Positions 3-39,279 of a stretch of DNA of 64,000 nucleotides are shown here, one piece after another. Position numbers and translations under genes: made by a program. This DNA is from an uncultured Candidatus Saccharibacteria bacterium. Its GTDB lineage: Bacteria; Patescibacteriota; Minisyncoccia; UBA6257. The notes below the pieces were generated by a model, which had not been told where the DNA came from, ran no database searches, and worked only from the letters and a program-made list of their open reading frames with translations. Numbering within the stretch: the first letter of the stretch is position 1; each line of letters opens with the position of its first letter. The stretch spans positions 96,001 to 160,000 of the forward strand of contig CAYZJA010000002.1 of the NCBI GenBank assembly GCA_964479005.1, read 5' to 3'.

Positions 3-644
3 ATGTTTGGAATTTATTGCACAGGAAAGATTCCTTTTAAGGCTGTATATTTGCATGGATTAGTAAGGGATAAAGATCGCCAAAAAATGTCTAAATCCAA
101 AGGTAATGTAATTGACCCTTTGGCAATTGCTAAAATTTATGGAACAGACGCTGTAAGGATGGCTTTAATAATTGGCAATACTGCTGGCAGCGATATTATT
201 ATTTCCGAAGAAAAAATCAAGGGATATCGTAATTTTGCAAATAAAATTTGGAATGCATCCCGCTTTGTTTTGATGAATTTAAAAAATTTTGATGGGAAAA
301 AATCTGCTTTAACTACGCAAGACAAGAAGCTTTTAAAAAATTTGGAAATTATAAAGAAAAAAATGACTCACCATTTGGATAATTTTCATTTTTCTTTGGC
401 AGGAGAATTAATTTATCATTATTTTTGGCATACTTTTGCTGACAAGATAATTGAAGAGATGAAAAATAGAATTAAAGATAATAAAGATAAAAAACAGGCA
501 CAGTATGTACTTTACAAGATTCTTATTGATTGTTTGAAGATGCTTCATCCATTTATGCCATTTGTGACAGAAGAAATATGGCAGAAAATCCCTCGATATA
601 AGGACAAAAGAGCAGATTTATTAATAATAGAAAAATGGCTTTAA
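3..644 (+). CDS. valS: Valyl-tRNA synthetase, C-terminal fragment (5' end lies outside the window)
   Basis: KMSKSKGNVIDP (class I KMSKS motif) followed by GYRNFANKIWNASRFVLMN, which closely matches the ValRS anticodon-binding region. Confidence 0.85.
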   Translation: MFGIYCTGKIPFKAVYLHGLVRDKDRQKMSKSKGNVIDPLAIAKIYGTDAVRMALIIGNTAGSDIIISEEKIKGYRNFANKIWNASRFVLMNLKNFDGKKSALTTQDKKLLKNLEIIKKKMTHHLDNFHFSLAGELIYHYFWHTFADKIIEEMKNRIKDNKDKKQAQYVLYKILIDCLKMLHPFMPFVTEEIWQKIPRYKDKRADLLIIEKWL

Positions 645-12511: not shown

Positions 12512-14242
12512 CTATATCTCTTTTAATGCTTGTATTCCTAATATTTCTAATCCTTTTTCAAGGACACTAGTGATTGTCTTTAGAAGAACAAGTTGGGCGT
12601 TTTGTCTGGCTTTATTTTTTTCTTTTAACACAGGTATAGCTTCATAATATTTGTTAGTTAAATCCGCCAATGATAAAAGGTAAGTAGCTAAATTGTTTGA
12701 TGAATATTTTTCAGCGCTGGTTTGAATTATTTCCGGAAATTCAGATAATTTTTTAATGAGATAAATTTCCAATTCATTGGTTAATAATTTGCAATCATAT
12801 TTTCCGATTTTTTTGGCTTTAGTAAGAATTTTATTTATACGGGCATAGGCATATTGAAGATAAACACTGGTATCTCCTGAAAAATCAAGCATTTTTTTCC
12901 AATCAAAAACAATATCAGAAGCGCGAAATGATTTTAAATCATTAAATTTTAAAGCCCCAACTGCAATTGTTTGGGCTAATTCTTTTTGTTTTGGCAGTGA
13001 CCATTGGGATTTTTTCTCTTTAATTATTTCCAATGATTTTTCAATTATCTGATTAATAACCTGTTCAAGAGGGATAATTTCTCCTTCTCTAGTAGAGAAC
13101 TTTTTCTTTTTTTCTGACAATATCAAGCCAAATTTAATATGAACCAATTCGGTTTTTTCTTTTGGAAAAATAATTTTTGATAGAGTAAAAAGTTGTTTAA
13201 AATGAACGTCTTGTTCATTGCCAACAACATAAAGAATTTTTGCAGGATGGTATTTTTTGAAACGGTATTTTAGCAAAGCCAGATCGCGAGTAAGATATAA
13301 GCTTGCTTTGTCTGATTTTTGAATTAAGGCAGAAGGAAGATTAAATTTTTCTAAAGGAACAATAAGCGCTCCTTTGCTTTTTTGCGCCAAATTCTTTTTT
13401 TTCAAAAGATTCACTAATGGAATCAAATCTTTTTCAAGAAAGCTCTCGCCTAAAAGAAGGTCAAACTTAATATCCAAAAGTTTATATATTTTTTGAAAAT
13501 CTTTAATTGATTCTTTTTTAAACCACAGCCATAATTCTTTGTTTTCTTTATCACCTTTTTCTAATTTTTTGAATTCTTCCTGTCCTAATTTTTCTAAATC
13601 CGGATTATTTTTTATCTCCCCATGGAATTTTATATATAAAGCAAGAAGAGTAGGAATAGGATTTTTTTCTATTTCTTTTTTCCGCCCCCAAAGCTTATAA
13701 GCGGCAATTAATTTTCCAAATTGAGTACCCCAATCGCCAAGATAATTCCAGCGAATCACTTTATAGCCCAATGTCTCATATAAATTAGCCAATGTTTCAC
13801 CAATGATTGTGGAACGTAAATGCCCAATATGCATTGGTTTGGCAATATTAGGTGAGGAATAATCAATTATTATCGTTTTGTTTTTACCTATTTTTGAAAG
13901 TCCAAATTTTGTTTTTTGTTTATATATGGTTTCTAATTCTTTTTGGATAAATTCTTTATTAACGAAAAAATTAATAAAACCATTTTTAGCTAATTCTACT
14001 TTTGTTATTTCTTTTGGCAATTTTTGCTGCATCTCGTCTATTAAAATTTGGGCTATTTCAAAAGGAGATTTTTTAACATCTTTGCTAATGGAAAAGGCTA
14101 TAGTTGTACTGTAGTCTCCATATTGCTCGTTTTTTGGTATTTCTAACGAAACATCAGGAATAGAAGAAAGAGGCCATTTATTTTTTATGGCTGTTTTTTC
14201 GCATGATTTTTGAACGAAGTTTTTGATTGTTTGTTTTAGCAT
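12512..14242 (-). CDS. argS: Arginyl-tRNA synthetase
   Basis: HIGH motif PMHIGHLRSTIIGE and a C-terminal anticodon-binding (DALR-type) region. 576 aa. Confidence 0.9.
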   Translation of the reverse strand: MLKQTIKNFVQKSCEKTAIKNKWPLSSIPDVSLEIPKNEQYGDYSTTIAFSISKDVKKSPFEIAQILIDEMQQKLPKEITKVELAKNGFINFFVNKEFIQKELETIYKQKTKFGLSKIGKNKTIIIDYSSPNIAKPMHIGHLRSTIIGETLANLYETLGYKVIRWNYLGDWGTQFGKLIAAYKLWGRKKEIEKNPIPTLLALYIKFHGEIKNNPDLEKLGQEEFKKLEKGDKENKELWLWFKKESIKDFQKIYKLLDIKFDLLLGESFLEKDLIPLVNLLKKKNLAQKSKGALIVPLEKFNLPSALIQKSDKASLYLTRDLALLKYRFKKYHPAKILYVVGNEQDVHFKQLFTLSKIIFPKEKTELVHIKFGLILSEKKKKFSTREGEIIPLEQVINQIIEKSLEIIKEKKSQWSLPKQKELAQTIAVGALKFNDLKSFRASDIVFDWKKMLDFSGDTSVYLQYAYARINKILTKAKKIGKYDCKLLTNELEIYLIKKLSEFPEIIQTSAEKYSSNNLATYLLSLADLTNKYYEAIPVLKEKNKARQNAQLVLLKTITSVLEKGLEILGIQALKEI

Positions 14243-15160: not shown

Positions 15161-16696
15161 TTATTCTACATAATATTTCTTTTTAATTTCTTTTTCATTT
15201 TCTTCTAAAAGATTTTTGTATTTTTCTTGGGCTATTTTTTGTTTTTTCTTTAATTCATTTTCAGAAAGCTGGTTTAATTCTTTCGCCTCTTTTTTTAAAT
15301 ATTTTTTATTATTCTTTTTAGAATCATCCAATACTTGTTCCAATAAAATACTTAAAATTGCTCCGATTTTAGGACTTGATTCAATGCGCAATGTTTTAAT
15401 TATATCATTACCATTTATTTTTAATATTTTAAGAGATGGTTGTTGTCCTCCCAATTCCTGTAATACTTTTTCTACGCGAAATAGAAAGTGACGAAGACGA
15501 AAAGGAAGAGCTTTGGGACATCCAGATCCTATTCTATCAGCTTCTCTTACTTGAGCTAATTCTTGAATATTTTCTTTTCCGATTTTAACTAATAATCTGC
15601 GTATAGCAGCGTCTGTAGTAATTTCCGGGTCATAAACAAAGCCGTGATAACGCACTAATTTAATAATCTTTTCTGCTTTATCTTTGGGAAATTTTAGACG
15701 GCTAAGAATACGGGCTGTAATTTTTGCTCCCTGCCATTCATGGTTATAAAAAGTAGCGTCTATACCTTCACCTTCTTTAGTATATGGTTTTCCAATGTCG
15801 TGAAATAAACTGGCAAATCTTACTTCTAGACTATACCCTTTTTCGCAGGCATATTTTAGAGAGCGCCAAGCATGTTCCCAAACAGTATAAATATGGTGTT
15901 TGTTTTGAGTTACCCCAATGCTTTTTTCTAGTTCGGGCATAATTTGTTTTAGCAAATTATTTTCTTGTAAAAGAAAAATTCCTTTAACAGCTTGCGGGGA
16001 ATTGATAATTTTAATTAATTCATCCCGAATTCTTTCTTTAGAAATAAAGCTGAGAAGAGAAGTATTATCTTTTATGGCACCCAATGTTTGTGGCTCTATT
16101 TGGAAATTTAATTCGCAGGCAAAACGAATAGCTCGCATTAAGCGCAAGCCATCTTCAGAAAACCGTTCTTTTGGGTTTCCTACTGCTCTGATAAGTTTTT
16201 TTTGCAGGTCTTTTTGTCCATTAAAAGGATCAATAATTTTATAACTTGCAGCTTGCAGCTTATAACTTTTTTCTTTAGTTTTAAGTTTTAAGTCTTGCGT
16301 TTCAAGACGAAGAGCCATTGCATTGACAGTGAAATCACGACGATTTAAATCCTCTTCAATTGTTTCAGCAAATTCTATTTTGTCAGGATGGCGCTTATCA
16401 CTGTATTTCTCTTCTTTTCTAAAAGTAGTGGCTTCAATAATTTTTAAATCTGGGTTTTTTGAATCAGTTTTTATTAAAACAGTACCAAATTCATTTTCAC
16501 AAACACTCTCAGGAAAGAGTTTTTGAATTTGTTCAGGCGAGGCATTGGTAGTAATATCCCAATCCTTTGGATCCCTTTTTGATTCTTTGGTTTTACTTAG
16601 GATAAGGTCTCGGACACATCCCCCGACAATATAGGCCTCAAAATCAGCTTGACTCAGTTTTTTTATTATTTCTAATACTTCTAACGGCATTTGCAT
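15161..16696 (-). CDS. cca: CCA-adding tRNA nucleotidyltransferase with HD domain
   Basis: N-terminal GGCVRDLIL...DWD polymerase-beta-like head and an HD motif (LFHDIGK). 511 aa. Confidence 0.8.
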   Translation of the reverse strand: MQMPLEVLEIIKKLSQADFEAYIVGGCVRDLILSKTKESKRDPKDWDITTNASPEQIQKLFPESVCENEFGTVLIKTDSKNPDLKIIEATTFRKEEKYSDKRHPDKIEFAETIEEDLNRRDFTVNAMALRLETQDLKLKTKEKSYKLQAASYKIIDPFNGQKDLQKKLIRAVGNPKERFSEDGLRLMRAIRFACELNFQIEPQTLGAIKDNTSLLSFISKERIRDELIKIINSPQAVKGIFLLQENNLLKQIMPELEKSIGVTQNKHHIYTVWEHAWRSLKYACEKGYSLEVRFASLFHDIGKPYTKEGEGIDATFYNHEWQGAKITARILSRLKFPKDKAEKIIKLVRYHGFVYDPEITTDAAIRRLLVKIGKENIQELAQVREADRIGSGCPKALPFRLRHFLFRVEKVLQELGGQQPSLKILKINGNDIIKTLRIESSPKIGAILSILLEQVLDDSKKNNKKYLKKEAKELNQLSENELKKKQKIAQEKYKNLLEENEKEIKKKYYVE

Positions 16697-16830: not shown

Positions 16831-16904
16831 GCCCTCGTGGTGTAACTGGATAACATTTCTGTCTTCGGAACAGAAGATTGCAGGTTCGAATCCTGCCGAG
16901 GGCA
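16831..16904 (+). tRNA. tRNA-Arg (anticodon UCG)
   Basis: Acceptor GCCCTCG/CGAGGGC, anticodon stem TCTGT/ACAGA with loop CTTCGGA, T-loop GGTTCGAATCC, discriminator A. No CCA encoded. Confidence 0.75.
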
Positions 16905-16921
16905 CGACATAAATTGTTTAA

Positions 16922-17100: not shown

Positions 17101-18588
17101 ATGAAAGATAAAAATAAACAATTAGGTTTAGTTTCACGTCCTCCGATTATCGTTGTTTTGGGGCATGTAGATCATGGCAAAACAAGTCTTTTGGATTATA
17201 TTAGAAAAACAAAAATTGTTGAAAAAGAATCAGGAGGGATTACTCAACATATTGGCGCTTATGAAATTGAAGTAGAAGGCAAAAAAATCACTTTTATTGA
17301 TACTCCTGGACATGAAGCATTTTCTAAAATTCGTTCTCGGGGAGCAAAGGTCGCTGACATCGCTATTTTAGTAGTTGCTGCTGATGAAGGAGTAAAAGTG
17401 CAAACGAAAGAATCATTAAAGGATATAAAGGAAGCTCAGATTCCTTATATTGTGGCAATTACAAAAACTGACAAAGAGGGAGTTAATTTAGAAAAAGTAA
17501 AAAATGAATTATCTGAAGCAGGAGTATTATTGGAAGGCCGGGGCGGCGATGTTCCTTTTATTGGTGTTTCTTCAAAAACAGGACAAGGCATTGATGAATT
17601 TTTAGAACTTATTCTTTTGTTGTCAGAGATGCAGGAATTAAAAGCTAATCCAAACAATCAAGCTTCAGGCGTTGTGATAGAATCCCATTTAGACCGCTTT
17701 AGAGGAAATACAACAAGTTTAATTATTACTAATGGCACCCTTCATCTGAAGGATAATATAAAAGCAGATCAGATTGAAGGAAAAGTAAAAATTTTGGAAA
17801 ATTTTCAAGGAAAATCTATTCCTGAAGCGACTTTTTCCTCACCAGTGAAAGTACTTGGTTTTGAAAAGCCAGTATCAGTAGGAGCAAAGTTTTTAACTGG
17901 GAATGAATCTGTCCTGAGCAGTTCGGCCCTGAGCGAAGCCGAAGGGTCAAGAGTAGTTGGAAAAGAATTAGGAAATAAGGATTCAAAAATTAAAATCCCA
18001 ATTATTATAAAAAGTGACACATCTGGTTCAGGCGAAGCATTAGAACAAATCATAGCGCAATTAGGAGAAAAAAATGATTGGTCCTTTCTGCTCTTAAAAA
18101 ACGAAACTGGTGATGTTTCTGAAAGTGATTTTAAAATAGTTCCATCAGGAAAAACCCTAATTATATGCTTTAGGGTCAGAAAAAGACCAGAGACAAATAA
18201 TATTCTTTTATCTAACAAAAATTTATTGTTGGTTGAAGGGAGTGTTGTCTATGAAATTGAAGATAAGATTAAAGAATTAGTAGAAAATGAGTTTATAAAA
18301 AAACCAACAGAAGAAATTCTTGGGAAATTGGAAGTTTTAGCTATTTTTAATCCCATAAAAGGTAGTCAATTAATAGGGGGAAAGGTTATTGAAGGCAAGA
18401 TTCAAAATAAAATTCGTTTTCGTTTGTTGCGTGAAGAAGAAATAATTAGCCAAGGCAAAATTTTAAATCTGCAAAAAAATAAGGCTGATGTTTCGAATAT
18501 TAATGCAGGTGAAGAATGTGGTTTAGTGGTTAATTGTCCAGAGCAAATAGAAAAAGGAGATTTACTTGAATTTTTTAGAAAAATTTAA
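17101..18588 (+). CDS. infB: Translation initiation factor IF-2 (short form lacking the N-terminal extension)
   Basis: G-domain [23 protein letters not shown], and C-terminal beta-barrel domains. 495 aa. Confidence 0.9.
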
Positions 18589-22794: not shown

Positions 22795-23949
22795 ATGCCA
22801 GAAAATTTTTCTTTACCTTCTAATGTTTCTAATGAAGATTCTGGAGCAACTCCAGAACAATCTTCTGGGCAAGTTCCTGAACAAGAGGAACCAGAACAAA
22901 AATTTTCTCCTCCACCTTCAAATGTTTTTATAAGAACATCGCAGTCAGACTTAGAAAAAATTAAATCTGAAGGAGGAGCAATTTCAGGAATGCCGCCTCC
23001 ACCTCCTCCTCCACCATCGTCTCTTCCTGTCACTCCTACTCCTGTTTCTTCTATGGAACAAGAACCCAGTATGCAAGATAAGCAAGCAGAGCCTAGTATG
23101 CAGCCAGAACCAGCTTTTTCTGAGTCAGAGCCTTCTTTTGCACCAGAAGCGCCAGTTGGAATGTCTGAGTTTCCAACTACTGAGGAAGAACCTCCACAGA
23201 AAAATAAATTATTGCCCTTTATCATTATAGGTGTATTAATCGTGGCAGTAGCTGCATTAGGATATTTTTATCTTTGGCCTAAGTTTTTTGAAGCTAAACC
23301 CGCTGTTACTACTACGACAACTACAACTACAAGCACAACAACTACAACTCTAGCTGCTTCACCATATCCTCAAATCAGTGGTCCGTTTCAAAAATCCCTT
23401 TTTAATATAGAAATTAGCGGTTCAGATGTTGTCAAGGCTATAAAAGATTCAGCCACTTCTGAAATGGCTGCTCCTGGAACTTTCAAAATTCTTATTCCTA
23501 AAGTACACAATGATGCTCTTACAAACGAAGAAGTAGTTCTCTCTCTTATTCCGCAATTACCAACAAGATTAAAGCCTTATATGTTGGCTCGTAAATACTT
23601 AGTTTATTCTTACTATGGAGCAGTTAATCCATCGCTTGGTTTAATTATTGATATTGGAGAAGAAAGTAAAGAGGAAGTGAAATCTATTTTCTTAGCTTGG
23701 GAAAAAAGACTAGGAATTTTGAATGATTTGAAAGATTTTTTTCTTGTAAGTATTCCTAAGAAAACTGCCAATGATTTTAAAGAAACTACTAATGCAGGCG
23801 CAGAAATTCGTTACTTTACTTATTCTGGGGAAGAAGCAGCAATTACTTATGCTTTTTCTGATACATATCTTATAATGAGTTCATCTTTAGAATCAGTGAA
23901 TAGCGCTATTTCTCATCTTCAAGGTATAACCGAACCAATCTATCCATAA
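22795..23949 (+). CDS. Hypothetical membrane-anchored protein with Pro-rich and poly-Thr low-complexity tracts
   Basis: PPPPPPPPPSS and TTTTTTTTSTTTTT runs, with a central TM helix LLPFIIIGVLIVAVAALGYFYLW. The antisense ORF 22779-23225 is judged spurious. Confidence 0.45.
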   Translation: MPENFSLPSNVSNEDSGATPEQSSGQVPEQEEPEQKFSPPPSNVFIRTSQSDLEKIKSEGGAISGMPPPPPPPPSSLPVTPTPVSSMEQEPSMQDKQAEPSMQPEPAFSESEPSFAPEAPVGMSEFPTTEEEPPQKNKLLPFIIIGVLIVAVAALGYFYLWPKFFEAKPAVTTTTTTTTSTTTTTLAASPYPQISGPFQKSLFNIEISGSDVVKAIKDSATSEMAAPGTFKILIPKVHNDALTNEEVVLSLIPQLPTRLKPYMLARKYLVYSYYGAVNPSLGLIIDIGEESKEEVKSIFLAWEKRLGILNDLKDFFLVSIPKKTANDFKETTNAGAEIRYFTYSGEEAAITYAFSDTYLIMSSSLESVNSAISHLQGITEPIYP

Positions 23950-25856: not shown

Positions 25857-25931
25857 GCGCACGTAGCTCAGTGGTAGAGCGCCGCCCTTATAAGACGGTG
25901 GTCGCAGGTTCGATCCCTGCCGTGCGCACCA
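25857..25931 (+). tRNA. tRNA-Ile (anticodon UAU, putative), CCA encoded
   Basis: Acceptor GCGCACG/CGTGCGC, anticodon stem CCGCC/GACGG (one C-A mismatch) with loop CTTATAA, T-loop GGTTCGATCC. Confidence 0.6.
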
Positions 25932-28584: not shown

Positions 28585-28667
28585 GCGCGGGTGGTGGAAT
28601 GGTAGACACGCATCTTCGAGGGGGATGTGTCCGCAAGGACGTGGAGGTTCGAGTCCTCTCCCGCGCA
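28585..28667 (+). tRNA. tRNA-Leu (anticodon GAG, probable), type II
   Basis: Acceptor GCGCGGG/CCCGCGC, discriminator A (Leu-like), long variable arm, anticodon stem CATCT/GGATG with loop TCGAGGG. Position 33 appears to be C. Confidence 0.6.
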
Positions 28668-28676
28668 CATAAAAAT

Positions 28677-31834: not shown

Positions 31835-31911
31835 TGGTCCCCTCGGCAGGACTCGAACCTGTAATCTCCAACTCCGCAAGTTGATGCTTTGTCCAATTAA
31901 GCTACGAGGGG
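31835..31911 (-). tRNA. tRNA-Arg (anticodon GCG), CCA encoded
   Basis: Reverse complement folds as acceptor CCCCTCG/CGAGGGG, anticodon stem TCAAC/GTTGG with loop TTGCGGA, T-loop GGTTCGAGTCC, discriminator A. Confidence 0.7.
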
Positions 31912-34595: not shown

Positions 34596-35963
34596 ATGGC
34601 AAATGATTTAATGGAAAAAATTATATCTTTGTGTAAAAGGCGTGGTTTTGTTTATCCCTCTTCTGAGATTTATGGAGGGTTTGCTAATATCTATGATTTT
34701 GGACCATTAGGTTCGCTTTTAGCTAAAAATATTCGGGATGTCTGGATTAAAAAGATGGTTCAAGAGCGAAACGATATGTATTTAATTGATGGCTCGATTT
34801 TAATGCATCCAAAGGCATGGGAAGCCAGTGGGCATACTGCTGCCTTTACCGATCCTTTAATACAATGCCCATCGTGTAAAAAAAGATTTCGAGCAGATAC
34901 ATTAGAAGGCTGGAAACTAGAAAAAGATAATCAAACAGGAAAATGGAATGTTTTGAATCAAGGGAGTTTAATTTGCCCAGATTGTAATGGGGATTTAATT
35001 CCAGATGTTAAAGAATTCAATCTTTTAATGACAACAAGCGTAGGTTCAATTGAAGGGGAAAAGACGGAAGTATATCTTAAGGGTGAATCGTGCCAGAATA
35101 TTTATCTTGATTTTTTGCCAATAAGGGATACGATGGGAGCAAAAATTCCATTTGGTGTTGCGCAAGTTGGTAAAGCTTTTCGTAATGAAATTACATTAGG
35201 TAAATTTCTCTTTAAGGTGAGAGAATTTGAGCAAATGGATATTGAATATTTTTGTTCGCCAGAAGAAGCTAAAAGATTATATGAGGAATGGAAAGATATT
35301 AGATTTAACTGGTATGTTGATACAATTGGCTTAAGTAAAAATAGGCTTCGTTGGAGGCAGCATTTTTCTGAAGAAAGAATTTTTTATGCCAGAGATGCAT
35401 GGGATATTGAGTACAAATTCTTTGATGAGTTTGAGGAATTAGAAGGAATTCATGATCGTTCTGATTATGATTTAAAACAACAAGGAAAGTTTTCTGGAAA
35501 AGCGCTTGATTATTTTGATCCAATAAGCAAAACAAGATTTACTCCAAACATTATTGAATGTTCTGGTGGCCTTCAAAGGACTTTTTTGGCTATTTTAGCA
35601 GAGAGCTATCAAGAAGAGAAAGTAAAAGATGAAAAAAGAGTGTTTTTGAAAATTAAACCGAGCCTTTCTCCATATAAGGTGGCTGTTTTTCCTTTAGTTG
35701 CAAATAAAGATAATTTAACTGAGAAAGCTAAAGATGTCTTTAATCTTTTAAAACCTGAATTTATGACAATGTGGGATAGCATTGGTAATATAGGAAAGAG
35801 ATATCGACGTCAGGATGAGATCGGAACACCTTGGTGTATAACAGTGGATTACCCAACATTAGAAGATAATACTGTTACAATTCGTGATAGGGACACAATG
35901 AAACAACAAAGAATTAAAATCGAAGAAATTATTGGATGGATAAAAGAACAATTAAATGTATAA
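34596..35963 (+). CDS. glyQS: Glycyl-tRNA synthetase, dimeric archaeal/eukaryote-type
   Basis: Begins with the conserved RRGFVYPSSEIYGGFANIYDFGPLG. Class II motifs and an embedded zinc-binding insertion. 455 aa. Confidence 0.9.
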   Translation: MANDLMEKIISLCKRRGFVYPSSEIYGGFANIYDFGPLGSLLAKNIRDVWIKKMVQERNDMYLIDGSILMHPKAWEASGHTAAFTDPLIQCPSCKKRFRADTLEGWKLEKDNQTGKWNVLNQGSLICPDCNGDLIPDVKEFNLLMTTSVGSIEGEKTEVYLKGESCQNIYLDFLPIRDTMGAKIPFGVAQVGKAFRNEITLGKFLFKVREFEQMDIEYFCSPEEAKRLYEEWKDIRFNWYVDTIGLSKNRLRWRQHFSEERIFYARDAWDIEYKFFDEFEELEGIHDRSDYDLKQQGKFSGKALDYFDPISKTRFTPNIIECSGGLQRTFLAILAESYQEEKVKDEKRVFLKIKPSLSPYKVAVFPLVANKDNLTEKAKDVFNLLKPEFMTMWDSIGNIGKRYRRQDEIGTPWCITVDYPTLEDNTVTIRDRDTMKQQRIKIEEIIGWIKEQLNV

Positions 35964-38286: not shown

Positions 38287-39279
38287 ATGGTGAACATTTT
38301 AATTTCCAAAATTGATTTAAAAAATCTATATTTAGATAAAAAATTAACTACTTATGATATAGCTAAATTTTATAATTGTTCTCAGGGAACAATATGGAAA
38401 AGATTAAAAAGATTTAATATAAAAACGAGATTTTCTTGGAATGAGGTCAACCTTTCTAAGAAAAAACTGAGGGATTTATATACTAAAGATAAATTATCTA
38501 CTTGGCAGATAGAAAAGATTTTGAAAATACCTAGGAGTACAATTTATAGAAAACTTATAGATTATAATATTCCTGTAAGAAATCTGGCGCAGTCTCATAT
38601 TATTTATCCACGAAAGAATTTTAATGGAAACAAAACAGAAAAGGCTTATCTTATGGGTTTTGCAATTGGGGATTTAAGAGTAAGAAAAATATATAAAAAT
38701 AGTGAAACAATTCACATTGATTGTGGCTCTACTAAGAAAGAACAGATAAAACTTATATCAGATTTATTTAAACCTTATGGAAGGGTTTGGATTAGTAAAC
38801 CCAATAGGATAAAAGCTGTTCAAATAGAGTGTTCTGTCAATAATTCTTTCGGTTTTTTGCTAGAAAAGAAGAAATTTTTAGATAACTGGATTTTAGCTAA
38901 CAAAAGATATTTCTTTTCTTTCTTAGCAGGTTTTACTGATGCTGAAGGATGTATTTCAGTAACGTCAAAAGGACAAGCTTTCTATTCTTTAGGAAATTAT
39001 AATGATACACTCTTAAAACAAATAAGGGATAGACTCATTCGATGGGGAATAGAGGTGCCGAAACTTACTAGAAGCCGGACACATTTAGGGTATATTACTA
39101 AAGAGGGCTATACGATTAATCATATTTATTGGATACTGCACATTAATAGAAAACAATTCCTTCTGTTATTATTTGATTTAATGGGCCCGCATCTTAAGCA
39201 TTTTGCAAAAATTCAGGGGTTATTAAAGGCTCAAAAAAATATAGAAGAAAGAAATAAAAAAATTTTTAATTTAAAATGA
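38287..39279 (+). CDS. Free-standing double-motif LAGLIDADG homing-endonuclease-like protein with two N-terminal HTH repeats
   Basis: Motifs YLMGFAIGDL and FLAGFTDAEGCISV about 90 aa apart. Residues 8-100 form a tandem duplication (LTTYDIAKFYNCSQGTIWKRLKRFNI / LSTWQIEKILKIPRSTIYRKLIDYNI) that looks like HTH modules. Confidence 0.6.
   Translation: MVNILISKIDLKNLYLDKKLTTYDIAKFYNCSQGTIWKRLKRFNIKTRFSWNEVNLSKKKLRDLYTKDKLSTWQIEKILKIPRSTIYRKLIDYNIPVRNLAQSHIIYPRKNFNGNKTEKAYLMGFAIGDLRVRKIYKNSETIHIDCGSTKKEQIKLISDLFKPYGRVWISKPNRIKAVQIECSVNNSFGFLLEKKKFLDNWILANKRYFFSFLAGFTDAEGCISVTSKGQAFYSLGNYNDTLLKQIRDRLIRWGIEVPKLTRSRTHLGYITKEGYTINHIYWILHINRKQFLLLLFDLMGPHLKHFAKIQGLLKAQKNIEERNKKIFNLK

Follow-up and report, generated by a model that had tools for sequence, protein, structure and literature searches.

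The window, which here denotes the whole 64,000-nucleotide stretch of DNA analysed, contains two arginine tRNA genes together with the genes of an arginyl-tRNA synthetase (ArgRS) and a CCA-adding enzyme:

12512..14242, minus strand: ArgRS of the canonical bacterial type, including the N-terminal domain (Pfam tRNA-synt_1d, DALR_1 and Arg_tRNA_synt_N; NCBIfam TIGR00456 argS)
15161..16696, minus strand: CCA-adding tRNA nucleotidyltransferase (Pfam PolyA_pol, PolyA_pol_RNAbd, HD and tRNA_NucTran2_2)
16831..16904, plus strand: tRNA-Arg(UCG) (ARAGORN, Rfam, cloverleaf read from the sequence)
31835..31911, minus strand: tRNA-Arg(GCG) (ARAGORN, Rfam, cloverleaf, synteny and covariation)

The original prediction had placed arginine tRNA genes with the anticodons UCG and GCG at these two sites, and ARAGORN (tRNA-Arg(tcg) at 16831-16905, plus strand; tRNA-Arg(gcg) at 31835-31911, minus strand) and Rfam agree on both. 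Against the Rfam model RF00005, which has a gathering score of 29, tRNA-Arg(UCG) reaches 66.1 bits (E 3.7e-12, 16831-16904) and tRNA-Arg(GCG) reaches 59.6 bits (E 2.3e-10, 31838-31911). The tRNA-Arg(UCG) gene opens a cluster of Arg, Lys and Ser tRNA genes that lies upstream of infB, and recG, on the same strand, follows immediately after tRNA-Arg(GCG).

The cloverleaves of both tRNAs were parsed by hand from the gene sequences. tRNA-Arg(UCG) has the acceptor stem GCCCUCG/CGAGGGC, the D-loop AACUGGAUA with A20 present, and the anticodon loop C32-U33-U34-C35-G36-G37-A38 (CUUCGGA); its discriminator is A73 and the CCA end is not encoded. tRNA-Arg(GCG) has the acceptor stem CCCCUCG/CGAGGGG, in which the first pair is C1:G72, the D-loop AAUUGGACA, likewise with A20, and the anticodon loop U32-U33-G34-C35-G36-G37-A38 (UUGCGGA), followed by the discriminator A73 and an encoded CCA. 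Both tRNAs thus possess an NCG anticodon, U33 and a purine at position 37, and the C35, G36 and discriminator A originally read from the two genes are all found in the sequences. The two window genes are identical at 52 of 74 positions and have the acceptor stem and T arm in common. The T stem of tRNA-Arg(GCG) contains an A49:C65 mismatch, which is G49:C65 in one close relative (L002).

Studies in E. coli have defined A20, C35, G36 or U36, and A73 or G73 as the identity elements recognized by ArgRS. A20, C35, G36 and A73 are present in both tRNAs of the window. The ArgRS gene lies 2.6 kb away from the tRNA-Arg(UCG) gene, and its product scores 485 bits against TIGR00456 (cutoff 262). This canonical enzyme presumably charges both tRNAs. 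Its presence, the behaviour of the CGN codons and the covariation of the stems (see below) speak indirectly for charging with arginine and use in translation. The gene of the CCA-adding enzyme adjoins tRNA-Arg(UCG), and the enzyme is needed because this tRNA gene and about half of the tRNA genes of the window encode no CCA.

Altogether, ARAGORN finds 18 tRNA genes in the 64 kb. They cover many four-codon boxes with G34, U34 and C34 anticodons, and about half of them encode CCA. Four synthetases of assigned specificity are present, namely the C-terminus of ValRS, ArgRS, a TrpRS/TyrRS-class enzyme and MetRS, and one more class II synthetase is encoded at 34596-35963, alongside the CCA-adding enzyme in a tRNA-dense stretch.

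The remaining gene content points to the source of the DNA. The GC content is uniform, at 31-35% across the window. Pfam assigns bacterial-type GyrA, ArgRS, CCA-adding enzyme, a short IF-2, PNPase, FtsH, RecG and MetRS. Further bacterial-type genes encode RNase J, RNase Y, a type II/IV secretion ATPase and T4SS pilin-domain proteins, and RecO, TatD, BacA, an NYN-domain protein, ValRS, TrpRS/TyrRS-class enzymes, ABC transporters and the type IV pilus assembly proteins PilM and PilO are also found. Every identifiable gene is of bacterial type, and the tRNA genes are not surrounded by archaeal information-processing genes. A RecG scan of species-representative genomes yielded six close relatives with 71-94% protein identity, four of them labelled "uncultured Candidatus Saccharibacteria bacterium", one "Patescibacteria group bacterium" (DJVL01) and one "bacterium" (DAOVIY01); the identity to the "Candidatus Saccharibacteria" MAGs is 94-83%. 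All six are syntenic with the window, at a DNA identity of 82-91% in five of them and 65-74% in the sixth (L006). Because its genes are bacterial and its syntenic relatives are Saccharibacteria/Patescibacteria, the window is, as judged from gene content and synteny, from a CPR/Patescibacteria bacterium of the Saccharibacteria type and not from an archaeon. The RecG matches, the T4SS_pilin and type IV pilus genes, and the reduced core proteins all agree with CPR membership.

Two of these core proteins are shortened. IF-2 (17101-18588, plus strand) comprises only 495 aa and has no long N-terminal region, and ValRS (3-644, plus strand) stops right after the anticodon-binding domain, without the C-terminal coiled coil; both probably represent CPR-typical reduction. 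In addition, a free-standing ORF of 330 aa (38287-39279, plus strand) with HTH and LAGLIDADG-like domains is located between an AI-2E transporter gene and metG, and possibly represents a gene akin to those of homing endonucleases, either domesticated or mobile.

Besides the six genome loci (L001-L006), 80 loci whose FtsH is 55-95% identical were obtained from metagenome contigs by a scan anchored on FtsH. The total of 95 related loci amounts to 1.1 Mb, all of it anchored on recG or ftsH and hence one genomic neighbourhood sampled repeatedly. Three of the loci (L013-L015) are short Logan contigs from an FtsH look-up, belonging to the same strain as the window. Across the 95 loci, ARAGORN identifies 33 arginine tRNA genes, with the anticodons GCG (19), UCG (8), CCG (5) and UCU (1). 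The tRNA-Arg(CCG) genes occur in more distant relatives (L066-L068, L083 and L093). tRNA-Arg(GCG) directly precedes recG in each of the six genome loci covering the site and in 13 further loci, and the Arg(UCG)-Lys(CUU)-Ser(UGA) cluster of the window recurs in eight related loci.

The 13 distinct orthologous sequences of tRNA-Arg(GCG) fold into a common cloverleaf in which the GCG anticodon is unvarying, and compensatory double changes are seen at 14 of the 24 stem pairs. The anticodon loop is UUGCGGA in 18 of the 19 orthologues and CUGCGGA in the remaining one. Because the anticodon is invariant and so many stem pairs have changed in a compensatory manner, tRNA-Arg(GCG) is, on this comparative evidence, a functional gene under selection, neither a chance match nor a decaying copy.

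Two versions of this gene are found at the recG site. A 74-nt type is present in the window, L002 and L013, and a 72-nt type in the other loci; L052 is the exception and has the longer kind. The two types (window 31835-31911 compared with, for example, L001:9933-10005) are 62-72% identical within flanks of about 90% identity, and both retain the GCG anticodon. The pattern of sequence identity suggests in-situ gene replacement or rapid divergence.

Codon usage was computed on 51 ORFs of the window, comprising 18,931 codons, 696 of which are arginine codons. AGA accounts for 43% of the latter, AGG for 13%, CGU for 18%, CGC for 11%, CGA for 10% and CGG for 5%. CGU and CGC together make up 29% of the arginine codons, exceeding CGA and CGG. 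With 201 CGY and 107 CGR codons in use, decoders are needed for both sets. The meaning of these codons was examined by aligning codons of the window to orthologous codons in L001-L006. CGU, CGC, CGA and CGG exchange mostly with other arginine codons, including AGA and AGG, and the rest of the exchanges are with Lys, Gln and His; no exchange between CGN and Trp codons was found in these alignments. All four CGN codons therefore behave as arginine codons in the orthologue comparison, and there is no sign of CGA/CGG reassignment, since CGN never exchanges with Trp codons.

No tRNA-Arg(ACG) is found by ARAGORN among the 18 tRNA genes of the window, or among the 33 arginine tRNA genes in the 1.1 Mb of related loci, which represent one neighbourhood. 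An AGR-reading arginine tRNA is likewise missing from the 64-kb window; the tRNA set of the window is thus incomplete, and more arginine tRNA genes must lie elsewhere. With E. coli and S. aureus TadA as tblastn queries, the best match in the window has an E value of 0.6, which is not meaningful, and the 95 loci contain no match at E<0.01. A six-frame search of the window and the loci for the CDA zinc centre ([HC][AVS]E...PCxxC) gave no match, and Pfam and NCBIfam scans detected no deaminase domain in window ORFs of at least 120 aa located outside other genes. As the sequences searched come from a single neighbourhood of the genome, these negative results carry little weight.

Southlakia epibionticum ML1, a cultured Saccharibacterium from a family other than that of the window organism, has complete gene and structure-annotation tables (Tables S1 and S2 of Wang et al., Cell 2023, PMC10633639). 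Their sole "deam" entry is a dCTP deaminase of the dUTPase fold, and at the level of annotation they hold no entry for TadA, PF00383, PF14437 or "cytidine deaminase" (PMC10633639). A missing tadA had been part of the original prediction, which the window, the related loci and this annotation support indirectly; TadA is most likely absent from the window organism.

These observations can be joined into a decoding scheme. By the wobble rules, tRNA-Arg(GCG) would read CGU and CGC, as G34 pairs with U or C, and tRNA-Arg(UCG) would read CGA and CGG; in some relatives, tRNA-Arg(CCG) would read CGG. In addition, m1G37 is predicted in both arginine tRNAs of the window because G36-G37 constitutes the TrmD recognition motif in each. 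We infer the codon-to-tRNA assignments and the modifications in this way, and the same explanation implies that the rest of the genome would hold no tRNA-Arg(ACG). TadA would not be needed, since there would be no A34 tRNA-Arg to edit. We regard it as highly probable that this Saccharibacteria-type bacterium decodes the CGN box without wobble inosine, through tRNA-Arg(GCG) and tRNA-Arg(UCG), with TadA unneeded and likely absent, and that this is the normal CPR repertoire.

The scheme is in line with previous work on the lineage. In CPR bacteria, tRNA-Arg(ACG) appears to be missing and GCG, UCG and CCG to be used in its place (Shulgina & Eddy, eLife 2021, PMC8629427), and the same paper cites Rafels-Ybern et al. 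2019 for deep-branching bacteria without wobble inosine. The window matches this repertoire in lineage, in the GCG and UCG genes, in the occurrence of CCG in distant relatives and in that ACG is not seen, with no essential difference. It differs from Absconditabacteria, for which PMC8629427 predicts that CGA and CGG have been reassigned to Trp, in that all CGN codons behave as arginine codons. Our literature search on tadA or lysidine in Saccharibacteria, Patescibacteria or CPR brought up only Shulgina & Eddy as relevant. The inosine-free arginine tRNA set is thus already known at the lineage level.

Across bacteria, tRNA-Arg(ACG) and TadA are near-universal and GCG is normally absent (PMC8007984; bioRxiv 10.64898/2026.05.15.725136; PMC3711424), and ACG and tadA co-occur (Ehrlich 2021, PMC8007984). 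The canonical system, in which TadA converts tRNA-Arg(ACG) to ICG and tRNA-Arg(CCG) serves alongside it, concerns the same codon box and amino acid and uses the same identity elements A20, C35 and G36. In contrast, the window has a genomically encoded G34 and a separate U34 tRNA for CGA, and no editing enzyme is needed. The proposal that GCG and UCG form a set requiring no A34-to-I editing, different from the usual ACG/TadA system, thus holds (PMC8007984; PMC3711424). CGN decoding had also been called non-canonical, which is right relative to the usual bacterial ACG/TadA system; it does not hold in the sense of an oddity, since this decoding is the norm in CPR and has been published (PMC8629427).

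Three other readings of the two genes have to be weighed. The organism might possess the canonical tRNA-Arg(ACG) and tadA elsewhere in its genome, with the GCG gene as a redundant extra isoacceptor. The window would leave room for this, as it carries only 18 tRNA genes and the AGR-reading tRNAs must lie outside it. Sister strains moreover have an A34 tRNA, tRNA-Leu(AAG) (see below), which might be a sign of some A34 deaminase activity in these bacteria and thus speaks against the inosine-free scheme. However, ACG is missing from all 33 arginine tRNA genes of the relatives, CPR bacteria are published as being without it (PMC8629427), and GCG and ACG essentially never occur together in bacteria (PMC8007984; bioRxiv 10.64898/2026.05.15.725136). 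Moreover, purifying selection on tRNA-Arg(GCG) is clear, with compensatory changes, and no CDA-fold deaminase is annotated in a complete Saccharibacteria genome (PMC10633639). Together these points make a hidden ACG/TadA system improbable. Mollicutes without TadA read the whole CGN box with a single tRNA (UCG). Such organisms resemble the window organism in having a small AT-rich bacterial genome and in decoding CGN without inosine; they differ in that the window splits the box between G34 and U34 tRNAs, with all CGN codons in normal use. Yokobori et al. (NAR 2013, PMC3711424) provide the precedent of Mollicutes without TadA and report that part of the ACG tRNA in M. capricolum stays undeaminated. 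A loss of TadA in this style, in which an unmodified U34 of tRNA-Arg(UCG) would superwobble over all CGN codons and the GCG gene would be a decaying pseudogene, could account for the A49:C65 mismatch. Against it, two conserved isoacceptors with G34 and U34 are present where a single tRNA would read all CGN codons, and CGU and CGC are used more than CGA and CGG. In addition, the GCG gene reaches 59.6 bits, has its CCA encoded, shows compensatory changes and keeps its anticodon in 13 distinct sequences, and L002 carries the same gene type without the mismatch. The score, the CCA end, the conservation and the unmismatched L002 copy lead us to reject the pseudogene reading, and we consider this explanation very improbable as a whole.

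Archaea decode CGN with G34, U34 and C34 tRNAs, and have neither A34 tRNAs nor an A34 deaminase. The set in the window resembles this arrangement in using GCG for CGY and UCG for CGR, in needing no inosine and in G37, and had been described as archaeal-like. Such a picture could in principle arise if the genome were archaeal or if an archaeal tRNA had been acquired horizontally, given that the GCG/UCG pair, G37 and the lack of A34 are like archaeal arginine sets (PMC8007984). This reading is contradicted by GyrA, IF-2, PNPase, FtsH, RecG, RecO, RNase Y, RNase J, argS and valS, which are all bacterial, by the uniform GC content of 31-35%, by the position of tRNA-Arg(GCG) inside a conserved bacterial synteny block, and by its likeness to the resident UCG gene, with which it has the acceptor stem, the T arm and 52 of 74 positions in common. 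Archaeal origin is rejected on these grounds and retains hardly any probability. The archaeal-like description thus stands as a functional analogy and falls as a statement about origin, since the core genes are bacterial, the relatives are Saccharibacteria/Patescibacteria and the acceptor stem and T arm are common to the GCG and UCG genes. The window also differs from the archaeal system in its bacterial ArgRS and bacterial CCA-adding enzyme, so that the resemblance is one of function and not of descent. The inosine-free GCG/UCG set favoured here is neither peculiar to the window genome nor a sign of archaeal ancestry.

Two further tRNA genes of the window touch on wobble decoding:

25857-25931, plus strand: tRNA-Ile(UAU), directly after ftsH
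28585-28668: tRNA-Leu(GAG)

At the site syntenic with tRNA-Leu(GAG), seven close relatives possess a tRNA-Leu(AAG) (L004:19905-19992, L005:8483-8569, L017:11398, L025:16794, L028:7143, L029:14482 and L048:17231). Its anticodon loop is CUAAGGA versus UUGAGGG in the GAG allele, which corresponds to the three linked changes U32C, G34A and G38A; apart from these, its backbone matches that of the GAG allele in L002 and L038 exactly. On the ftsH tree, AAG and GAG loci are interspersed. Avoidance of CUC would be expected if an unmodified A34 read C poorly; the ratio CUC/(CUU+CUC) is 0.08-0.19 in the Leu(AAG) loci versus 0.08-0.17 in close GAG relatives, with no difference between them. If TadA is absent, tRNA-Leu(AAG) would be a natural unmodified-A34 tRNA; if its A34 is edited, there would be an unrecognised deaminase, acting on tRNA-Leu and not on tRNA-Arg.

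tRNA-Ile(UAU), a gene seldom seen in bacteria, is found in 75 of the 95 related loci, nearly always adjoining ftsH (for example L001:20998-21073, L029:11811 and L095:11875). It is conserved down to about 55% FtsH identity, and its stems show compensatory changes. The C30:A40 mismatch in the window copy is a paired position in L002 and L006. AUA makes up 28% of the isoleucine codons in the 51 ORFs of the window and, on this sequence evidence, appears to be read by the genomically encoded tRNA-Ile(UAU). A search for a TilS-like ORF through the PP-loop (SGGxDS) gave only spurious or unrelated matches in the window and the loci. In Southlakia epibionticum, ftsH is directly preceded by an essential tilS and has no tRNA gene after it (PMC10633639). 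The place of this tilS is occupied in the window by an ORF of 384 aa (22795-23949, plus strand), which is predicted to have a single membrane segment and includes long tracts that are Pro-rich or poly-Thr; it has no Pfam or NCBIfam match. Only nine bacterial species without tilS and with tRNA-Ile(UAU) were known in 2013 (PMC3575796), and the literature we searched contained nothing linking tRNA-Ile(UAU) or the loss of tilS to CPR. Tentatively, and with the odds rather against it, one may suppose that both wobble-editing systems of bacteria have been lost from this environmental Saccharibacteria lineage, with AUA read by tRNA-Ile(UAU) and TadA absent.

The arginine tRNA set of the window is one more instance of a published CPR trait, the use of tRNA-Arg(GCG) instead of an inosine-edited tRNA-Arg(ACG), and reveals no new biology. 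In practical terms, the GCG/UCG pair provides a quick CPR marker for low-GC bacterial contigs, and CPR sequence can be wrongly labelled archaeal-like by "domain" heuristics that rely on tRNAs. tRNA-Ile(UAU) and tRNA-Leu(AAG) may be more interesting than the arginine set. Natural decoders with an unmodified U34 or A34 are rare among bacteria, so the tRNA-Ile(UAU) at ftsH and the Leu(GAG)/Leu(AAG) polymorphism with its linked loop changes may be worth studying in their own right.
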